Source: a phage
Length of the DNA stretch: 64,000 nt
Sequence record: PZ154895.1
Direction: 5' to 3' (one strand)
A model generated the notes under the pieces. The model was not told where the DNA came from. It did not search any database and saw only the letters and a program-made list of their open reading frames with translations. Shown here piece by piece: positions 2,929-54,865 of the stretch (its first letter is position 1; every line of letters starts with the position of its first letter). The position numbers were made by a program, and so were the translations under genes.

Positions 2929-3242
2929 AAAAGCGTCTATTAGAAGACATTGCAGCTTCAAGTAATTCTAGTCTAATTAAAATTATTATGGCTGGTGAAG
3001 AAGACGATCTGGAAATGCGTGGAAAGATTCATGGTTGTGACGATTTAGATTTTAAACCTCCGGCATGGGATGCTATTATTGTTATGGTTGAACGCCGCGA
3101 AAGGGCTTCTAAGAATGTTCCGAACTGCCCAAAATGTGGTACTGAACAGGTACAATTAGTTCATTGGCAGACTAGTATTCTTCGTTATAAATGTCGTCAT
3201 TGCAAACACCGATTTGACCGAGAAGAAAATGAAAAAGCGTAA
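2925..3242 (+). CDS. small zinc-ribbon protein (CPKCG...CRHCKH)
   Basis: ORF track; ATGA overlap with upstream stop; GAGG 7 nt upstream; two Cys pairs. Confidence 0.5.
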
Positions 3243-3471
3243 AGAATATATGGAGATTGCTGAAAAGGCAGTCCGTGAATTAGCAATAGCGTATTATAAT
3301 GAACACGGTAAATTTCCTGATAGATACAGCGTGCTTAAATCTGCTTTAACTCGTTCATATAAAAATATGCTATCAGAAGTAAGTGATATTATATACAAAC
3401 ATAAAGAACAAACGGGCCAAAGTCTTGATTACGACGAGACTTTTAAACAAGTACTAGGAATTAAGGAATAA
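3229..3471 (+). CDS. hypothetical protein
   Basis: ORF track 3214..3471 begins at TTG; first in-frame ATG at 3229. Confidence 0.4.
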
Positions 3472-3472
3472 T

Positions 3473-3736
3473 ATGTTTAAAGTATATGGTTATGATAGCA
3501 ACATCCACAAATGTGTGTATTGCGATAATGCAAAACGTCTCTTGACTGTGAAGAAACAGCCGTTTGAATTTATCAACATTATGCCGGAAAAAGGTGTTTT
3601 TGATGATGAGAAAATCGCTGAGCTTCTGACGAAACTAGGTCGTGATACTCAAATTGGACTGACGATGCCACAAGTATTTGCTCCTGATGGAAGTCATATT
3701 GGTGGATTTGACCAATTGCGGGAATACTTTAAATGA
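3473..3736 (+). CDS. nrdC: phage glutaredoxin/thioredoxin NrdC
   Basis: 87 aa; CVYC redox motif; matches T4 NrdC as recalled; AAGGA SD. Confidence 0.9.
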   Translation: MFKVYGYDSNIHKCVYCDNAKRLLTVKKQPFEFINIMPEKGVFDDEKIAELLTKLGRDTQIGLTMPQVFAPDGSHIGGFDQLREYFK

Positions 3737-49605: not shown

Positions 49606-50544
49606 ATGTACAATATTAAATGCCTGACCAAAAACGAACAAGCTGAAATTGTCAAACTGTATTCAAGTGGTAATTACACCCAACAGGAATTGGCTGATTG
49701 GCAAGGTGTATCGGTTGATACAATCCGTCGTGTTTTGAAAAATGCTGAAGAAGCTGAGCGCTCCAAAGTTACCATTAACGGTGACATTACAGTTGAAGTT
49801 AAGAGCGATGTAGCTATTGCTCCAGTTGCTAAATCTGACATTATTTGGAATGCATCTAAAAAATTCATTTCAATTACTGTTGACGGTGTAACTTATAACG
49901 CAACTCCTAATACTCATTCAAACTTCCAAGAAATTCTTAATCTGCTTGTTGCAGATAAATTGGAAGAAGCAGCGCAAAAAATTAACGTTCGTCGCGCTGT
50001 TGAAAAATATATTTCCGGCGATGTTCGAATTGAAGGTGGAAGCTTGTTCTATCAAAACATTGAATTGCGGTCTGGTTTAGTTGATCGTATTCTCGATTCG
50101 ATGGAAAAAGGCGAAAACTTTGAATTTTATTTTCCGTTCTTGGAAAATCTGCTGGAAAACCCAAGCCAAAAAGCGGTATCTCGACTCTTTGATTTCTTGG
50201 TAGCAAACGATATTGAAATTACAGAAGACGGCTACTTCTATGCTTGGAAAGTAGTTCGCAGCAATTACTTTGACTGTCACTCAAATACCTTTGATAACAG
50301 TCCTGGTAAAGTAGTTAAAATGCCACGTACTCGTGTAAATGACGATGATACACAAACTTGTTCTCGTGGTCTGCATGTGTGTTCTAAATCTTATATTCGT
50401 CACTTTGGCAGTTCAACCAGCCGAGTTGTAAAAGTTAAAGTACATCCTCGCGATGTAGTATCAATTCCGATTGATTACAACGATGCTAAAATGCGTACCT
50501 GCCAATATGAAGTAGTCGAAGACGTTACTGAACAATTTAAATAA
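49606..50544 (+). CDS. rIIB: rIIB protein
   Basis: 312 aa; matches T4 rIIB; terminator downstream. Confidence 0.93.
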   Translation: MYNIKCLTKNEQAEIVKLYSSGNYTQQELADWQGVSVDTIRRVLKNAEEAERSKVTINGDITVEVKSDVAIAPVAKSDIIWNASKKFISITVDGVTYNATPNTHSNFQEILNLLVADKLEEAAQKINVRRAVEKYISGDVRIEGGSLFYQNIELRSGLVDRILDSMEKGENFEFYFPFLENLLENPSQKAVSRLFDFLVANDIEITEDGYFYAWKVVRSNYFDCHSNTFDNSPGKVVKMPRTRVNDDDTQTCSRGLHVCSKSYIRHFGSSTSRVVKVKVHPRDVVSIPIDYNDAKMRTCQYEVVEDVTEQFK

Positions 50545-50562
50545 GGGCTTCGGCCCTTATCA
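50545..50562 (+). terminator. rho-independent terminator after rIIB
   Basis: GGGCTTCGGCCC + TTAT. Confidence 0.55.
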
Positions 50563-50576
50563 CATTAAGGAAAATT

Positions 50577-50771
50577 ATGTTAGGTTATCAAGCACGAGTA
50601 AAAGAAGAATACGATCAATTAATGCTCAAAATTAATGCACTGAGCAAATTTTTAGAAAGCGCAAAGTTTCTAACAGTTAGCGCAGTTGAGCAAGAACTGC
50701 TACTTTCGCAGTTTATCTCAATGAAATCTTATGCTGAATGTCTAGAGAAAAGAATTGCACAATTCAAGTAA
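50577..50771 (+). CDS. hypothetical protein (64 aa)
   Basis: ORF track; flanked by terminators. Confidence 0.45.
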   Translation: MLGYQARVKEEYDQLMLKINALSKFLESAKFLTVSAVEQELLLSQFISMKSYAECLEKRIAQFK

Positions 50772-50775
50772 AATA

Positions 50776-50798
50776 AAGGGCTTCGGCCCTTTTGTTTT
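50776..50798 (+). terminator. rho-independent terminator
   Basis: GGGCTTCGGCCC + TTTTGTTTT. Confidence 0.7.
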
Positions 50799-50857
50799 AA
50801 GGGAAGTTATGATTTATTATATGAATATCAGTAATTCCGACGTGAAAGGAAAGTTTA

Positions 50858-51415
50858 ATGCAGAAAACAAATCCGGGTTTACAGAGACTATTTCAGATTC
50901 CGACATTTATCCTATCGAACGGTGACTTGACTAGTGAAATGAAGGTCAAAATTGCTGATACAGCAAGATACTCTTTAAAACAAAATCCTAATCAGGATAA
51001 AGCAGAAGTCATCGAAAGATGCCGTATCGCTGTGTATGCAGAGTTTTTTGTAGCAGATTGGCTGAGCGGGTATGTTAACAAAGGCCAAGAGGATGTTAAT
51101 GACCCGTATACATACGCATGGGATGTATTGGCGCATCCAAGATATTGCGGGCTTCGTGTAGAAGTTAAGACACACCAAACTGACTCACGTTGGATTTCTG
51201 TAACAACCGGATGCAGCGGAGAGTATCCATATGGTTCTGGAATAAATCTAGGGCCCATTCTAAATCATCAAGTCGCTGACTGTATAATTATATTCAACAC
51301 TAAAGAAATTCATCCAGGTGTCATCCAGTACACTCCGAAGTTCATCGGTGACAGAGAAGACCTTCGTAAGGTTGTAAGAAAAAGCAACTACAACGGATGG
51401 TATCTTTCCATTTAA
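50858..51415 (+). CDS. denB: DenB-like endonuclease (endonuclease IV)
   Basis: 185 aa as T4 DenB; position downstream of rIIB; identity from size and synteny only. Confidence 0.65.
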   Translation: MQKTNPGLQRLFQIPTFILSNGDLTSEMKVKIADTARYSLKQNPNQDKAEVIERCRIAVYAEFFVADWLSGYVNKGQEDVNDPYTYAWDVLAHPRYCGLRVEVKTHQTDSRWISVTTGCSGEYPYGSGINLGPILNHQVADCIIIFNTKEIHPGVIQYTPKFIGDREDLRKVVRKSNYNGWYLSI

Positions 51416-51433
51416 AAAAAATTTCACAAAACA

Positions 51434-51463
51434 GTTTACATACCACAAGGACTGTGGTACTAT
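51434..51463 (+). promoter_or_regulatory. early promoter
   Basis: GTTTAC, 18-nt spacer, TGgTACTAT. Confidence 0.5.
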
Positions 51464-51490
51464 ACAACTATCAGCTACGGAGGAGTAAAA

Positions 51491-51754
51491 ATGAAATTTA
51501 AATTTTATTACGCTAAACATAAAATTACCGGTGAATTTATTGCATTTACGACTTCAACTACAGGTGAAGGAGATATTTTTACTGCAGTATTTTTATCAAA
51601 ATGGGAATCAGATCAACCTTACTTATCATCACGTGAAGATCTCCAACGATTAGTTAATGGAGAATATAATGATTCATGGTCATATTTAGTCCATGATTGT
51701 GTTAAAAAGGCAATAAAACAAAAACACCTGGAAATCGTTGAGATTGAACTATGA
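51491..51754 (+). CDS. hypothetical protein (87 aa)
   Basis: ORF track; early promoter upstream. Confidence 0.45.
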   Translation: MKFKFYYAKHKITGEFIAFTTSTTGEGDIFTAVFLSKWESDQPYLSSREDLQRLVNGEYNDSWSYLVHDCVKKAIKQKHLEIVEIEL

Positions 51755-51939
51755 GTTCACTGTGGTGGTGTTTTGTTTGGTTAATTAGTATTCCAGTAAT
51801 TTGTTTAACATTTACTTTTGTGATGAGGTTATTATGAAAATTTTGAATTCTGTACTTATTGCTTGTGCGTGGTGGGTTGTGCAAGTTTCAGCGGTAGTAG
51901 TTGGTATTCACATTTATTACGAATATTTTTAAAAAAGTT

Positions 51940-51969
51940 GTTTACAAGACTGTTCTTCCGTGGTACTAT
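51940..51969 (+). promoter_or_regulatory. early promoter
   Basis: GTTTAC, 18-nt spacer, TGgTACTAT. Confidence 0.5.
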
Positions 51970-51997
51970 TACCCTATCAACTACGGAGGAACAGAAA

Positions 51998-52111
51998 ATG
52001 AAAAAGATTGTTAAAGCTATATGGAATGTAGTTATAATACTAATAGTTTTGAGTATATTCCCAATCGTTTTAATGATTGATGTATTAAACGTTTACTTTG
52101 GATTTATGTGA
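51998..52111 (+). CDS. hydrophobic micro-protein (37 aa)
   Basis: In-frame ATG within ORF 51863..52111, preceded by early promoter and GGAGG. Confidence 0.3.
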   Translation: MKKIVKAIWNVVIILIVLSIFPIVLMIDVLNVYFGFM

Positions 52112-52118
52112 GGAAAAT

Positions 52119-52316
52119 ATGAAGCGTAAACGCAGTGCTTTTACATTTATTGAATGGTTTTTCGATAATATTTTTCCGGCTTTATTCATTTTCATGCTGA
52201 TTTTTGCCTTAGGTTCAGTTGTAGTTGGAATCTATTTGATGACAGTAGTCGGAATTGATATTCGTCAAAATGGTTTAAAATCTGTGGTTGAAACAATTTG
52301 GAATGGTGTAAAATAA
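52119..52316 (+). CDS. small membrane protein (65 aa)
   Basis: ORF track 52098..52316 (TTG); ATG at 52119 after GAGGA. Confidence 0.4.
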   Translation: MKRKRSAFTFIEWFFDNIFPALFIFMLIFALGSVVVGIYLMTVVGIDIRQNGLKSVVETIWNGVK

Positions 52317-52419
52317 GCATTTGGTTTTATATTCTTATGTTTTACATTGGTGCAAATTTTCCATATTGGATGGGATGGTCAACAACTGCATTTGGATTTT
52401 ATACTCCTTGAGGTGAATT

Positions 52420-52635
52420 ATGAAAAGTTTTAAAGATGTAAAAGTTGGTGAAATTTTTTGTTTAGATAACGGTGATCAGTTAATTCGTATTTCACCTCTT
52501 AAGAGCACTAGCGAGAAACCGACAGTTAACGCTACTTTAGCAAATAACAGTAATGAACGTTTCTGTATTGAAAATGATACTGAAACTTATACCGTAGAAG
52601 AGTTCTGGGAATTGAGCGTCGACTGCGACGATTAA
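52420..52635 (+). CDS. hypothetical protein (71 aa)
   Basis: ORF track. Confidence 0.45.
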   Translation: MKSFKDVKVGEIFCLDNGDQLIRISPLKSTSEKPTVNATLANNSNERFCIENDTETYTVEEFWELSVDCDD

Positions 52636-52639
52636 TTTA

Positions 52640-52668
52640 TCGGCCGTATGTATTCATGCGGCCTTGGA
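52640..52668 (+). terminator. hairpin, possible terminator or processing site
   Basis: GGCCGTATG...CATGCGGCC imperfect hairpin, no clear U-tract. Confidence 0.3.
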
Positions 52669-52694
52669 GTAGAAAATAATTAGAGGAAATTAAT

Positions 52695-53153
52695 ATGAAA
52701 TATATGACTGTTACTGATCTGAACAATGCAGGCGCTACTGTTATTGGTACAATCAAGGGTGGTGAATGGTTTTTAGGAACTCCGCATAAAGATATTTTAT
52801 CTAAACCTGGATTTTACTTTTTAGTAAGTAAATTAGATGGTCGTCCATTTAGTAATCCATGTGTGTCTGCACGATTTTATGTAGGTAATCAGCGTTCTAA
52901 GCAAGGATTCAGTGCAGTTCTAAGTCATATTCGTCAACGTCGGTCTCAGCTTGCACGTACTATTGCAAATAACAATGTTCCATACACAGTATTTTATCTG
53001 CCTGCTTCTAAGATGAAACCTCTGACGACGGGATTTGGTAAAGGTCAGTTAGCTTTGGCGTTTACTCGTAATCATCATTCTGAGTATCAAACACTTGAAG
53101 AAATGAATCGTATGTTGGCTGATAACTTTAAATTCGTTTTGCAGGCATATTAA
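52695..53153 (+). CDS. ndd: nucleoid disruption protein Ndd
   Basis: 152 aa; N-terminus matches T4 Ndd as recalled. Confidence 0.8.
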
Positions 53154-53240
53154 TGAGTAATTTCCACAACGAACACGTGATGCAGTTCTATCGTAACAAT
53201 CTTAAAACCAAAGGCGTCTTCGGACGCCAGTGAGGAAAAT

Positions 53241-53399
53241 ATGAATATCGCAAAATTATTAGGAGTTATTTCATTTATTTGTTGGATAGTAGCATGTGTT
53301 TTAACTATCTGTATTGATGCCAGCAGTGTGTTTTCGCAAGCTTTAGCTCAGGGTATGTGTGCATATTTAACATTTGTGTTGTTATCTACTAATGATTAA
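53241..53399 (+). CDS. ac: small membrane protein (52 aa), Ac-like by size and position
   Basis: GAGGA SD; single hydrophobic helix; T4 ac is a 51-aa membrane protein near gene 52. Confidence 0.45.
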   Translation: MNIAKLLGVISFICWIVACVLTICIDASSVFSQALAQGMCAYLTFVLLSTND

Positions 53400-53532
53400 G
53401 AAAATCTTGGGCTATTCATTAGCCCTTGCTATTTTATTGATAGCATTATATTACGGAATAATGTTCGGATTAATTCAAGTCGTGCTTTTCATTTCCGATG
53501 TTATTATGGCACTACATTCACTAGTATGGTAA
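53392..53532 (+). CDS. small membrane protein (46 aa)
   Basis: Start overlaps upstream stop; hydrophobic; stop 4 nt before gene 52 ATG. Confidence 0.3.
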   Translation: MIKKILGYSLALAILLIALYYGIMFGLIQVVLFISDVIMALHSLVW

Positions 53533-53536
53533 ATTT

Positions 53537-54865
53537 ATGCAACTGAATAATCGCGATTTAAAAAGTATCATTGATAATGAAGCATTGGCTTATGCTATGT
53601 ACACGGTTGAAAATCGTGCTATTCCAAATATGATTGATGGATTTAAGCCAGTCCAACGATTTGTTATTGCTCGAGCTCTTGATTTGGCGCGAGGAAATAA
53701 AGATAAGTTTCACAAACTTGCTTCTATTGCAGGTGGTGTAGCGGACCTTGGATATCATCATGGTGAAAACTCTGCGCAAGACGCGGGGGCTTTGATGGCT
53801 AATACTTGGAATAATAACTTTCCTTTGTTAGATGGTCAAGGAAACTTTGGTTCTCGTACCGTTCAAAAAGCAGCGGCAAGTCGTTATATTTTTGCTCGTG
53901 TAAGTAAAAATTTCTATAGCGTATATAAAGATACTGAATATGCTCCGGTACATCAAGATAAAGAACACATTCCTCCTGCTTTCTATTTGCCTATTATTCC
54001 TACTGTTCTTCTTAATGGTGTTTCCGGTATTGCAACTGGTTATGCAACTTACATTCTTCCTCATAGTGTTTCTTCTGTCAAGAAAGCTGTATTGCAAGCT
54101 CTTCAAGGAAAGAAAGTAACTAAACCGAAGGTAGAATTCCCAGAATTTCGCGGTGAAGTCGTTGAAATTGACGGTCAATATGAAATTCGTGGAACGTACA
54201 AGTTTACTTCACGAACTCAAATGCATATCACTGAGATTCCGTATAAGTATGATCGTGAAACTTATGTGAGTAAAATCTTAGACCCGCTTGAAGATAAAGG
54301 CTTCATTACGTGGGATGATGCTTGCGGTGAGCATGGTTTTGGCTTTAAAGTTAAATTCCGCAAAGAATATTCTTTGAGCGATAACGAAGAAGAACGCCAT
54401 GCAAAAATCATGAAAGACTTCGGGTTGATTGAGCGTCGTTCCCAAAATATTACAGTCATCAACGAGAAAGGAAAGTTACAAGTTTACGATAACGTAGTTG
54501 ATTTAATTAAAGACTTCGTTGAAGTTCGTAAAACTTATGTCCAAAAACGAATTGATAACAAAATCAAAGAAACTGAATCAGCATTTCGTTTAGCCTTTGC
54601 CAAGGCGCATTTCATTAAGAAAGTAATTTCAGGTGAAATTGTTGTGCAGGGTAAAACTCGTAAAGAACTGACCGAAGAACTTTCTAAAATTGAGATGTAT
54701 TCTTCTTATGTTGATAAACTAGTCGGAATGAATATTTTTCATATGACTTCCGACGAAGCAAAGAAACTTGCTGAAGAAGCTAAAGCTAAGAAAGAAGAAA
54801 ACGAATATTGGAAAACTACTGATGTAGTTACAGAATACACCAAAGATTTAGAGGAAATCAAATGA
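53537..54865 (+). CDS. 52: DNA topoisomerase II medium (GyrA-like) subunit gp52
   Basis: 442 aa; near-identical to T4 gp52. Confidence 0.95.
   Translation: MQLNNRDLKSIIDNEALAYAMYTVENRAIPNMIDGFKPVQRFVIARALDLARGNKDKFHKLASIAGGVADLGYHHGENSAQDAGALMANTWNNNFPLLDGQGNFGSRTVQKAAASRYIFARVSKNFYSVYKDTEYAPVHQDKEHIPPAFYLPIIPTVLLNGVSGIATGYATYILPHSVSSVKKAVLQALQGKKVTKPKVEFPEFRGEVVEIDGQYEIRGTYKFTSRTQMHITEIPYKYDRETYVSKILDPLEDKGFITWDDACGEHGFGFKVKFRKEYSLSDNEEERHAKIMKDFGLIERRSQNITVINEKGKLQVYDNVVDLIKDFVEVRKTYVQKRIDNKIKETESAFRLAFAKAHFIKKVISGEIVVQGKTRKELTEELSKIEMYSSYVDKLVGMNIFHMTSDEAKKLAEEAKAKKEENEYWKTTDVVTEYTKDLEEIK

Follow-up and report, generated by a model that had tools for sequence, protein, structure and literature searches.

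Between the genes denB and ndd, bacteriophage T4 carries a series of very small open reading frames (ORFs), ndd.6 to ndd.2, which have long been annotated as "predicted membrane/periplasmic proteins". Here we describe the corresponding block of five micro-ORFs at positions 51751–52411 of a 64,000-nucleotide stretch of phage DNA (record PZ154895.1; this whole stretch is referred to as the window, and coordinates are those of the window unless another sequence is named). In T4, the products of the ndd micro-genes are given as unknown (PMC6071114), and the transcripts of ndd.2 to ndd.6 are classed as early by RNA sequencing (PMC9697503, Table S2). Upon knockdown by CRISPR interference (CRISPRi-ART), all of these genes scored "Not Fit", that is, no fitness effect was recorded (PMC11879866, supplement). 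The sa-delta-9 deletion, which extends from 52.1 through denB, lowers the phage yield to about half that of the wild type and abolishes the T4-induced stimulation of phospholipid synthesis, and in rII-delta-DD2, a deletion that shares part of its extent with sa-delta-9, the specific stimulation of phosphatidylglycerol is lost (PMC6071114). A search of the literature turned up no ribosome profiling dataset for T4.

Several described systems invite comparison with this block. In bacteria, AcrZ, MgrB and MgtS are single-pass inner-membrane peptides of 30–65 amino acids that bind a larger membrane protein. In T4 itself, Ac and gp52.1 are likewise hydrophobic, early and dispensable proteins of 46–52 amino acids, whose genes belong to this block as well and lie approximately 0.9 kb farther downstream, although they show no sequence similarity to the ndd-series proteins and belong to separate PHROGs; furthermore, acridine sensitivity is a genetic phenotype of Ac, whereas the ndd micro-genes have none. 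Finally, promoter/stem-loop (PeSL) cassettes have been described in the hyperplastic regions of T4-type phages (PMC2839356, PMC4122927).

Identification of five genes for small, predicted membrane proteins

A megablast search with positions 51400–52700 as the query matched 499 phage records, T4 included, with Shigella phage SP21535 (species Tequatrovirus lutter) as the top match at 99.4% identity; the source of the window is a Tequatrovirus. The first-pass annotation of this DNA, made from the letters and an ORF list, had proposed at least five small ORFs of roughly 28, 32, 37, 65 and 24 codons between denB and ndd, and all five are present there on the plus strand, with the sizes proposed (the fifth has 24 codons when counted from an ATG and 37 from a TTG). 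By sequence comparison, these ORFs correspond to T4 ndd.6, ndd.5, ndd.4, the fusion of ndd.3 with ndd.2a, and ndd.2. The observation is accordingly correct but already known, and in the form in which it was first stated it rediscovers annotated T4 genes and adds little. What is new are the details: ndd.3 and ndd.2a are a single gene, the start of ndd.2 has been lost, and the DUF7248 protein encoded by the fourth ORF has an invariant tail. Taken as a whole, the best explanation of the block is that its ORFs are true genes of a T4-like phage, which code for proteins, are expressed immediate-early and have accessory roles, a reading that we regard as probable.

Each of the five proteins matches a PHROG family along its whole length (8851, 5011, 3098, 2401 and 4135, in gene order), with E-values from 1.6e-17 to 2.3e-28. 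The 28-residue product of ndd.6 (51751–51837, plus strand) contains one predicted transmembrane (TM) segment (MSSLWWCFVWLISIPVICLTFTFVMRLL), is 100% identical to T4 Ndd.6 and aligns with PHROG 8851 from end to end (residues 1–28 on profile positions 1–28, E=1.6e-17), and that of ndd.5 (51834–51932, plus), 32 residues long with one predicted TM segment, is 97% identical to T4 Ndd.5 and matches PHROG 5011 over all 32 residues (E=1.6e-25). The 37-residue protein encoded by ndd.4 (51998–52111, plus) starts with MKKIVK followed by one predicted TM segment, is 97% identical to T4 Ndd.4 when the latter is counted from its internal methionine, and matches PHROG 3098 over its full length (E=2.9e-21); it also belongs to Pfam family PF26889 (Phage_T4_Y16N), an assignment taken from precomputed hits on proteins 92–100% identical to it and on its homologue in an uncultured contig (L022). 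The fourth ORF (52119–52316, plus) encodes a 65-residue protein with an MKRKRS N-terminus, a long predicted TM helix and the C-terminal tail NGLKSVVETIWNGVK, and matches Pfam DUF7248 (PF23906) over residues 6–63 with 66.3 bits against a gathering cutoff of 27; a sub-threshold match to DUF6753 was its only other Pfam hit. The fifth ORF (52298–52411, plus) is a start-deficient allele of ndd.2 that retains the conserved core WFYILMFYIGANFPYWMGWSTTAFGFYTP, the same as in phage Lutter, and matches PHROG 4135 (E=2.2e-23); its possible starts are the TTG at 52298 (37 residues) and the ATG at 52337 (24 residues, 52337–52411). The idea that such ORFs fall below typical annotation cutoffs does not hold for T4, in which all of them are annotated, or for the family databases, where all have a PHROG and two a Pfam family, but it does describe the automatic annotations of relatives, which often drop them: in SP21535, the closest relative, the 65-residue ORF alone is called.

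The description of the peptides as almost purely hydrophobic is appropriate for the first four, with grand average of hydropathy (GRAVY) values of 1.77 (ndd.6), 1.32 (ndd.5), 1.87 (ndd.4) and 0.83 (the 65-residue protein) and, in each, a 19-residue window with a mean Kyte-Doolittle hydropathy of 2.3–3.1. It does not fit the ndd.2 product, which is aromatic-rich, uncharged and mildly hydrophobic (GRAVY 0.27–0.54). The products of four of the five genes are therefore predicted to have one hydrophobic helix of sufficient length to cross a membrane, and, following the positive-inside rule, the Lys/Arg-rich N-termini of Ndd.4 and the DUF7248 protein suggest an N-in orientation for both. By itself, hydrophobicity is weak evidence for a gene, because 18% of the plus-strand ORFs of 24–70 codons in this AT-rich window have a GRAVY of at least 1.0. 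The excess over chance lies instead in the tight packing of the ORFs, which stand head-to-tail and occupy 589 of the 661 nucleotides (89%) of 51751–52411, in their translation signals and in their conservation.

Conservation and selection

Homologues were searched for with tblastn against 50,697 phage records. For ndd.6 there are 648 matching records, 154 of them below 60% identity, including Mosigvirus (~54%) and Dhakavirus; for ndd.4 there are 597, which extend to Dhakavirus, Pectobacterium phage PM2 and phages of Enterobacter and Edwardsiella. The T4-type form of ndd.2 has 519 matching records, 25 of which are Klebsiella phages with 44–49% identity, and the 65-residue ORF has 495, of which 494 contain it at full length. 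The 491 records with ndd.5 are all at least 90% identical, and outside Tequatrovirus there is none among the matches listed. Conservation of the frames and their Ka/Ks had been proposed in the first-pass annotation as a check on these ORFs, which a lack of frame conservation in related phages would have refuted; the outcome is in favor of their being coding, with frames intact in 491–648 records and across genera and dN/dS well below 1.

The ratio of nonsynonymous to synonymous polymorphism (pN/pS) was calculated from 16 Tequatrovirus loci, with an outgroup sample of six loci. It is 0.21 for ndd.6, 0.09 for ndd.5, 0.14 for the 65-residue ORF and 0.07 for the core of ndd.2, compared to 0.05 for denB and 0.09 for ndd as references in the same 16 loci. 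In the 65-residue ORF, 18 of the 27 variable sites are third codon positions, and the pooled counts of variable sites at the three positions are 12, 10 and 34 (p=7.5e-5). Ten of the 16 loci can be aligned across the whole region, and no indels occur among these apart from those of an intergenic A-run, a 12-nucleotide change that keeps the frame and a one-nucleotide gap in the T4 RefSeq sequence.

Between genera, ndd.6, ndd.4 and ndd.2 keep their length and motifs (MSS..W..IP.IC in ndd.6, K.IWN...VL.IFP.V.MID in ndd.4 and N.PYW.GWS in ndd.2) while synonymous sites are saturated, the homologues having 44–61% amino acid and 51–68% nucleotide identity. For ndd.4, the values between genera are 0.21–0.41 for pN and 0.70–0.98 for pS, and two Dhaka-type copies differ from each other synonymously only. 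The ndd.6 homologues of RB69, Dhakavirus and fDHCT2 preserve, in addition to the length and the MSS..W..IP.IC motif, the ATGA or TTGA coupling to an upstream ORF that is described below. The homologue in RB69 (2096–2182 of locus L014), like those of other Mosigvirus members, is unannotated, with 28 residues and 54% identity. Directly after it, an ATGA-coupled ORF encodes a hydrophobic peptide of 36 residues (L014, 2179–2289); this ORF was considered as an ndd.5 homologue, but the two do not align and it is a positional analogue only.

The arrangement of the families also varies. In Pectobacterium phage PM2, ndd.4 is the sole gene between denB and ndd, and immediately before ndd, Klebsiella phage Marfa has ndd.4 adjacent to ndd.2. 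The uncultured contig L022 (Logan SRR9703290, 1260–2126) has, in order, an ndd.6-like ORF that was not called, ndd.4, an ORF like the 87-codon orf87 that precedes ndd.6 in the window, an ndd.2-like gene, a DUF7248 gene of 76 codons and ndd. Since the place between denB and ndd is kept despite the changed order, the families behave as independent small genes.

A number of observations weigh against reading the five ORFs as genes for membrane proteins. None of the products of ndd.2 to ndd.6 was found by mass spectrometry in T4 (PMC9697503, Table S2), although this is unsurprising for peptides so tiny and hydrophobic. Translation and membrane location are predicted from sequence, and the topology is deduced from the positive-inside rule. 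Within Tequatrovirus, ndd.4 has a pN/pS of 1.3 and no synonymous excess; as the gene has only four variable sites there, it is uninformative within the genus, and the support for its being coding comes from the comparison between genera. For ndd.5, no homologue is detectable outside Tequatrovirus, and ndd.2, besides its mild hydrophobicity, lacks a canonical start in the window. The link to lipids, lastly, derives from multi-gene deletions in multiply mutant backgrounds, which also removed denB, ndd, ac and 52.1.

Some of the same observations would be expected if the five ORFs had arisen by chance in a leader or regulatory region rich in AT and were conserved through recent ancestry or through constraint on RNA. 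Short hydrophobic ORFs are common in off-frames, DNA identity across the region is about 95% within Tequatrovirus, and to these may be added the near-neutral ratio of ndd.4 in the genus and the proteins missing from the T4 proteome. This explanation is contradicted by the divergence of the cross-genus homologues at saturated synonymous sites, by the significant codon-position bias and by the lack of frame-breaking indels among the aligned loci. The Rfam scan of positions 51300–52800 returned no family at E<=1 and thus gave no sign of a structured RNA. We consider chance ORFs effectively excluded. It is, on the other hand, very likely that the five are early genes that are translated, and that their products are small accessory proteins of the inner membrane, most of them single-pass.

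Transcription and translation signals

Two early transcription units cover the block. The first starts from a T4-type early promoter at 51434–51463 (plus; GTTTACA-17-TGGTACTAT) and comprises orf87, ndd.6 and ndd.5, and the second, from a promoter of the same pattern at 51940–51969 (plus; GTTTACA-17-TGGTACTAT), comprises ndd.4, the DUF7248 gene, ndd.2 and ndd.1. Both promoters were recovered with a pattern scan and with a sigma-70 scan. In the window, the pattern GTTTAC-N15-19-GGTAYWAT has eight matches, all on the plus strand (the direction of T4 early genes), against 0.01 expected; the six other exact matches are at 887, 8862, 24452, 34689, 41752 and 47148. Among the aligned Tequatrovirus loci, the promoter at 51940–51969 is invariant but for two positions. 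The two early promoters proposed by the first-pass annotation hence both exist, although the second alone lies within the interval to which they had been assigned: the first is upstream of orf87 and reaches ndd.6 and ndd.5 only through that gene. The −10 region and leader of the first promoter (51454–51491) are repeated at 51960–51997 with 79% identity. This repetition, together with the shuffling of gene content and order among related phages, recalls the PeSL cassettes, but between 50966 and 52617 the plus strand has no terminator-like site, and the stem-loop that defines a cassette is therefore missing. The only pair of identical hairpins lies upstream of the micro-ORF block, on both sides of denB.1, where a 16-nucleotide GC-rich hairpin, AAGGGCTTCGGCCCTT, similar to a PeSL stem-loop, is found at 50543–50558 and again at 50776–50791.

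Translation of the genes appears to be closely linked. ATGA stop/start overlaps connect orf87 with ndd.6 (51751–51754) and ndd.6 with ndd.5 (51834–51837). There is no good Shine-Dalgarno (SD) sequence ahead of ndd.6, whose start overlaps the orf87 stop instead, and this coupling to an upstream ORF is kept as ATGA in RB69, Dhakavirus and T4 and as TTGA in fDHCT2. In the second unit, the SD of each gene coincides with the stop codon of the gene before it or follows that codon closely, as in the case of the 65-residue ORF and ndd.1 (GAGG and GAGGTGA). The earlier statement that several of the ORFs have their own GGAG motif is roughly right in that SD sequences are present, but the literal motif, as GGAGG, is found at ndd.4 only, those of ndd.5 and the 65-residue ORF being GAGG. 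The DUF7248 gene (52108–52123) and ac (53230–53245) are preceded by an identical stretch of 16 nucleotides, GTGAGGAAAATATGAA, made up of stop region, SD and start, so that the two genes have the same ribosome-binding site and start. A junction of similar type, CTGAGGAAAATATT-ATG, recurs ahead of several genes in Dhakavirus locus L016.

With this degree of coupling, it could be imagined that translation of the frames serves to pass ribosomes on to ndd.1 and ndd, or to protect the mRNA, while the sequence of the peptides is irrelevant. The GGAG motif in SD sequences is an established target of RegB in T4, and the motifs seen here are potential RegB sites; in T4, moreover, the ORF upstream of ndd.6 has been cut to a relic of eight codons that nevertheless preserves the coupling. 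Such a relay would not require, however, that genera with saturated synonymous sites still share the amino acid sequences, that variation be in excess at third positions or that family-specific motifs survive changes of gene order, and ndd is served by an SD of its own, which follows a 59-nucleotide spacer. We therefore regard a role as a mere translation relay as very improbable.

Differences from the T4 reference

In T4 (NC_000866, T4p275–T4p270), the order of genes from denB to ndd.1, the promoters and the coupling are the same as in the window, with 94–100% amino acid identity over the conserved parts. The principal difference is in the fourth gene. T4 RefSeq (NC_000866, 166548–166628) has two ORFs, "ndd.3" (26 residues) and "ndd.2a" (40 residues), in place of the 65-residue gene, as a result of a one-nucleotide gap just past the ATG, where the sequence reads ATGAA-CGT as opposed to ATGAAGCGT at window positions 52119–52130. 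In the resequenced T4 genome MT984581, the G is present and the 65-residue ORF is intact (1077–1274 of locus L018). Judged from these sequences, "ndd.3" is a frameshift artifact, listed as a PHROG singleton in the CRISPRi-ART supplement, and "ndd.2a" represents the C-terminal portion of the DUF7248 protein.

The remaining differences concern starts. T4 ndd.4 is annotated from an upstream start (MEEQK...) whose ATG is ACG in the window, which indicates that the 37-residue form, behind its GGAGG, is the conserved one. T4 ndd.2 begins with ATG-ATG overlapping the preceding stop; in the window, there is no ATG in this position, the triplet at 52313–52315 being ATA, and the region is 12 nucleotides shorter. 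As the normal start is missing, the 24-residue ORF is an ATG-initiated remnant of a 36-residue gene, and in this phage the expression of ndd.2 may be weak, or its product shortened or without activity. The start-deficient allele is also found in phages a51 and ECP52 and, by BLAST, in SP21535 and EO1, and annotators skip it or call it in a wrong frame, the latter in a51. The 8-codon relic of T4 (MKIAEIEL), ATGA-coupled to ndd.6, is what remains there of an 87-codon ORF that in the window is complete.

The DUF7248 protein

An AlphaFold2 model of the 65-residue protein contains helices at residues 3–17 and 19–64, with a mean predicted local distance difference test score (pLDDT) of 81 that is highest in the core and lower in the tail. 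A search of 1.84 billion representative proteins with the DUF7248 profile recovered approximately 20 further small proteins (47–76 residues) above threshold, which belong to Dhakavirus UPEC01, Serratia phage CHI14, Kosakonia phage Kc304 and contigs of uncultured phages, the latter packed with small genes on the same strand. Across 22 members, the hydrophobic segment varies freely, and next to it the tail follows the pattern G-L-K-S-V-V-E-x-I-W-N/E-G, in which G, K, W and G are invariant; in the window it reads NGLKSVVETIWNG (residues 51–63). The presence of an invariant motif beside a variable anchor suggests that the tail is a binding element for a specific partner, and, if the MKRKRS N-terminus follows the positive-inside rule, the tail would be periplasmic. 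Such an arrangement fits the mode of binding of AcrZ, MgrB and MgtS, with which the analogy is one of function only: neither Pfam nor PHROG provides a link that would indicate homology, and the ndd micro-genes are phage-encoded early genes.

No PDB sequence matched the DUF7248 profile at E<=1, and a literature search returned no mention of DUF7248 or of "ndd.2a". Four proteins of 820–976 residues with 5–10 short matches each to the tail motif, which the profile search of the representative proteins also returned, were judged to reflect composition or repeats and not homology; all four have repetitive helical segments, and two or more of them are tape-measure proteins of phages (PhageMin_Tail).

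Genomic neighborhood

Comparison of the ORF list with the T4 RefSeq annotation gives the order rIIB, denB.1, denB, the 87-codon ORF, the five micro-ORFs, ndd.1, ndd, stp, ac, 52.1 and gene 52 for positions 49606–54865, which places the block in the dispensable region between rIIB and gene 52. It is flanked by denB (50858–51415) and ndd (52695–53153). A scan of viral contigs for Ndd yielded five loci, all from close relatives. The genes at the two ends of the transcription units encode soluble proteins. The first, orf87 (51491–51754, plus; PHROG 2390), whose stop overlaps the ndd.6 start, specifies an 87-residue protein that is not hydrophobic; it occurs as two allelic types about 55% identical to each other within flanks at least 95% identical, and in fDHCT2 both types stand in tandem (3004–3524 of locus L017). 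The last gene of the second unit before ndd is ndd.1 (52420–52635, plus), with a 71-residue acidic product, also not hydrophobic; in phage vB_EcoM-fFiEco06, a frameshift has split it into two annotated ORFs (2214–2473 of locus L009).

Past ndd and stp, the hydrophobic run is prolonged by ac (53241–53399, plus; 52 residues) and 52.1 (53392–53532, plus; 46 residues), both hydrophobic and overlapping by eight nucleotides, which brings the interval from denB to gene 52 to seven such peptides. In Marfa and in contig L022, there are three hydrophobic ORFs each downstream of ndd.

Possible functions

Minutes after the start of infection, the single-helix products would insert into the cytoplasmic membrane of the host, where they might serve as small modulators of host envelope proteins or of the lipid-synthesis machinery rather than as pore formers, the last step being the weakest of the proposal. 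The DUF7248 protein could act through its juxtamembrane tail, and one of the micro-genes may be the factor by which phosphatidylglycerol synthesis is stimulated. That their role is accessory can be inferred from the lack of a knockdown effect and from the viability of sa-delta-9. Any single specific function is doubtful at this stage. A membrane anchor for Ndd was set aside as the role of a micro-protein, as Mosigvirus has denB and ndd without ndd.4, DUF7248 and ndd.2.

One specific version of this proposal is counter-defense or superinfection exclusion, whereby the peptides would shield the membrane of the infected cell from abortive-infection systems or from secondary phages. The rII genes act against Rex, and the T4 proteins Imm and Sp act at the envelope. 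The micro-genes share a dispensable block with rIIA/rIIB, stp (the PrrC trigger) and ac, they can be dispensed with on laboratory hosts, their presence and order differ from genus to genus, as those of genes for host interaction typically do, and the conserved tail of DUF7248 suggests a defined target. Nevertheless, the PHROG and Pfam scans revealed no similarity to characterized anti-defense or exclusion proteins, no phenotype is on record for the micro-genes, and the identity of at least 90% within Tequatrovirus comes without the diversifying selection that arms-race genes often show. We find this possibility rather unlikely.

Small, very hydrophobic single-helix peptides could alternatively be membrane-damaging, depolarizing the membrane during host shut-off in the manner of type I toxins or holins. 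One distant DUF7248 relative has a sub-threshold match to Holin_BlyA (E=0.0045; 17 bits against a cutoff of 27), and a likeness between ndd.6 and the N-terminus of Hok, treated only as a lead, had no counterpart in a Pfam scan that included Hok/Gef. In that scan of all peptides, made with a Pfam copy that does not contain PF26889, DUF7248 was the sole family matched, with no toxin, holin or lipoprotein family; at E<=1, no toxin or holin family was matched by any of the five, and ndd.6, ndd.5, ndd.4 and ndd.2 matched no family at all. Early in T4 infection the phage still needs an energized membrane, and this is the time at which the early promoters would have the peptides made. The polar tail of DUF7248, too, favors specific binding over bulk damage, and T4 is neither helped nor harmed by knockdown. 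A toxic function is therefore quite unlikely.

Implications

For annotation, the consequences are immediate. The T4 reference is misleading at this locus, and screens based on RefSeq, such as those with CRISPRi guide sets, count ndd.3 and ndd.2a as two genes; in relatives, automatic annotations drop or mis-frame the ndd-series ORFs, and pangenome counts are thereby distorted. For the biology of these phages, the ndd micro-genes are among the least studied genes of the best studied phage, yet they are conserved and under purifying selection. They also fall in the deletion interval that controls a 50-year-old, unexplained stimulation of phosphatidylglycerol synthesis after T4 infection, for which they provide a short list of candidates. 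It is conceivable, although we deem it unlikely, that the genes constitute a conserved set of early effectors of the inner membrane, shuffled in order and each with a defined target in the host, in which the periplasmic DUF7248 tail binds a conserved component of the Gram-negative envelope and DUF7248 or a neighbor, for example ndd.4, is the phosphatidylglycerol switch or a blocker of membrane defense. If it proved true that one micro-gene explains the lipid-synthesis phenotype or a membrane counter-defense, the gain in understanding of the T4-like phages would be modest.

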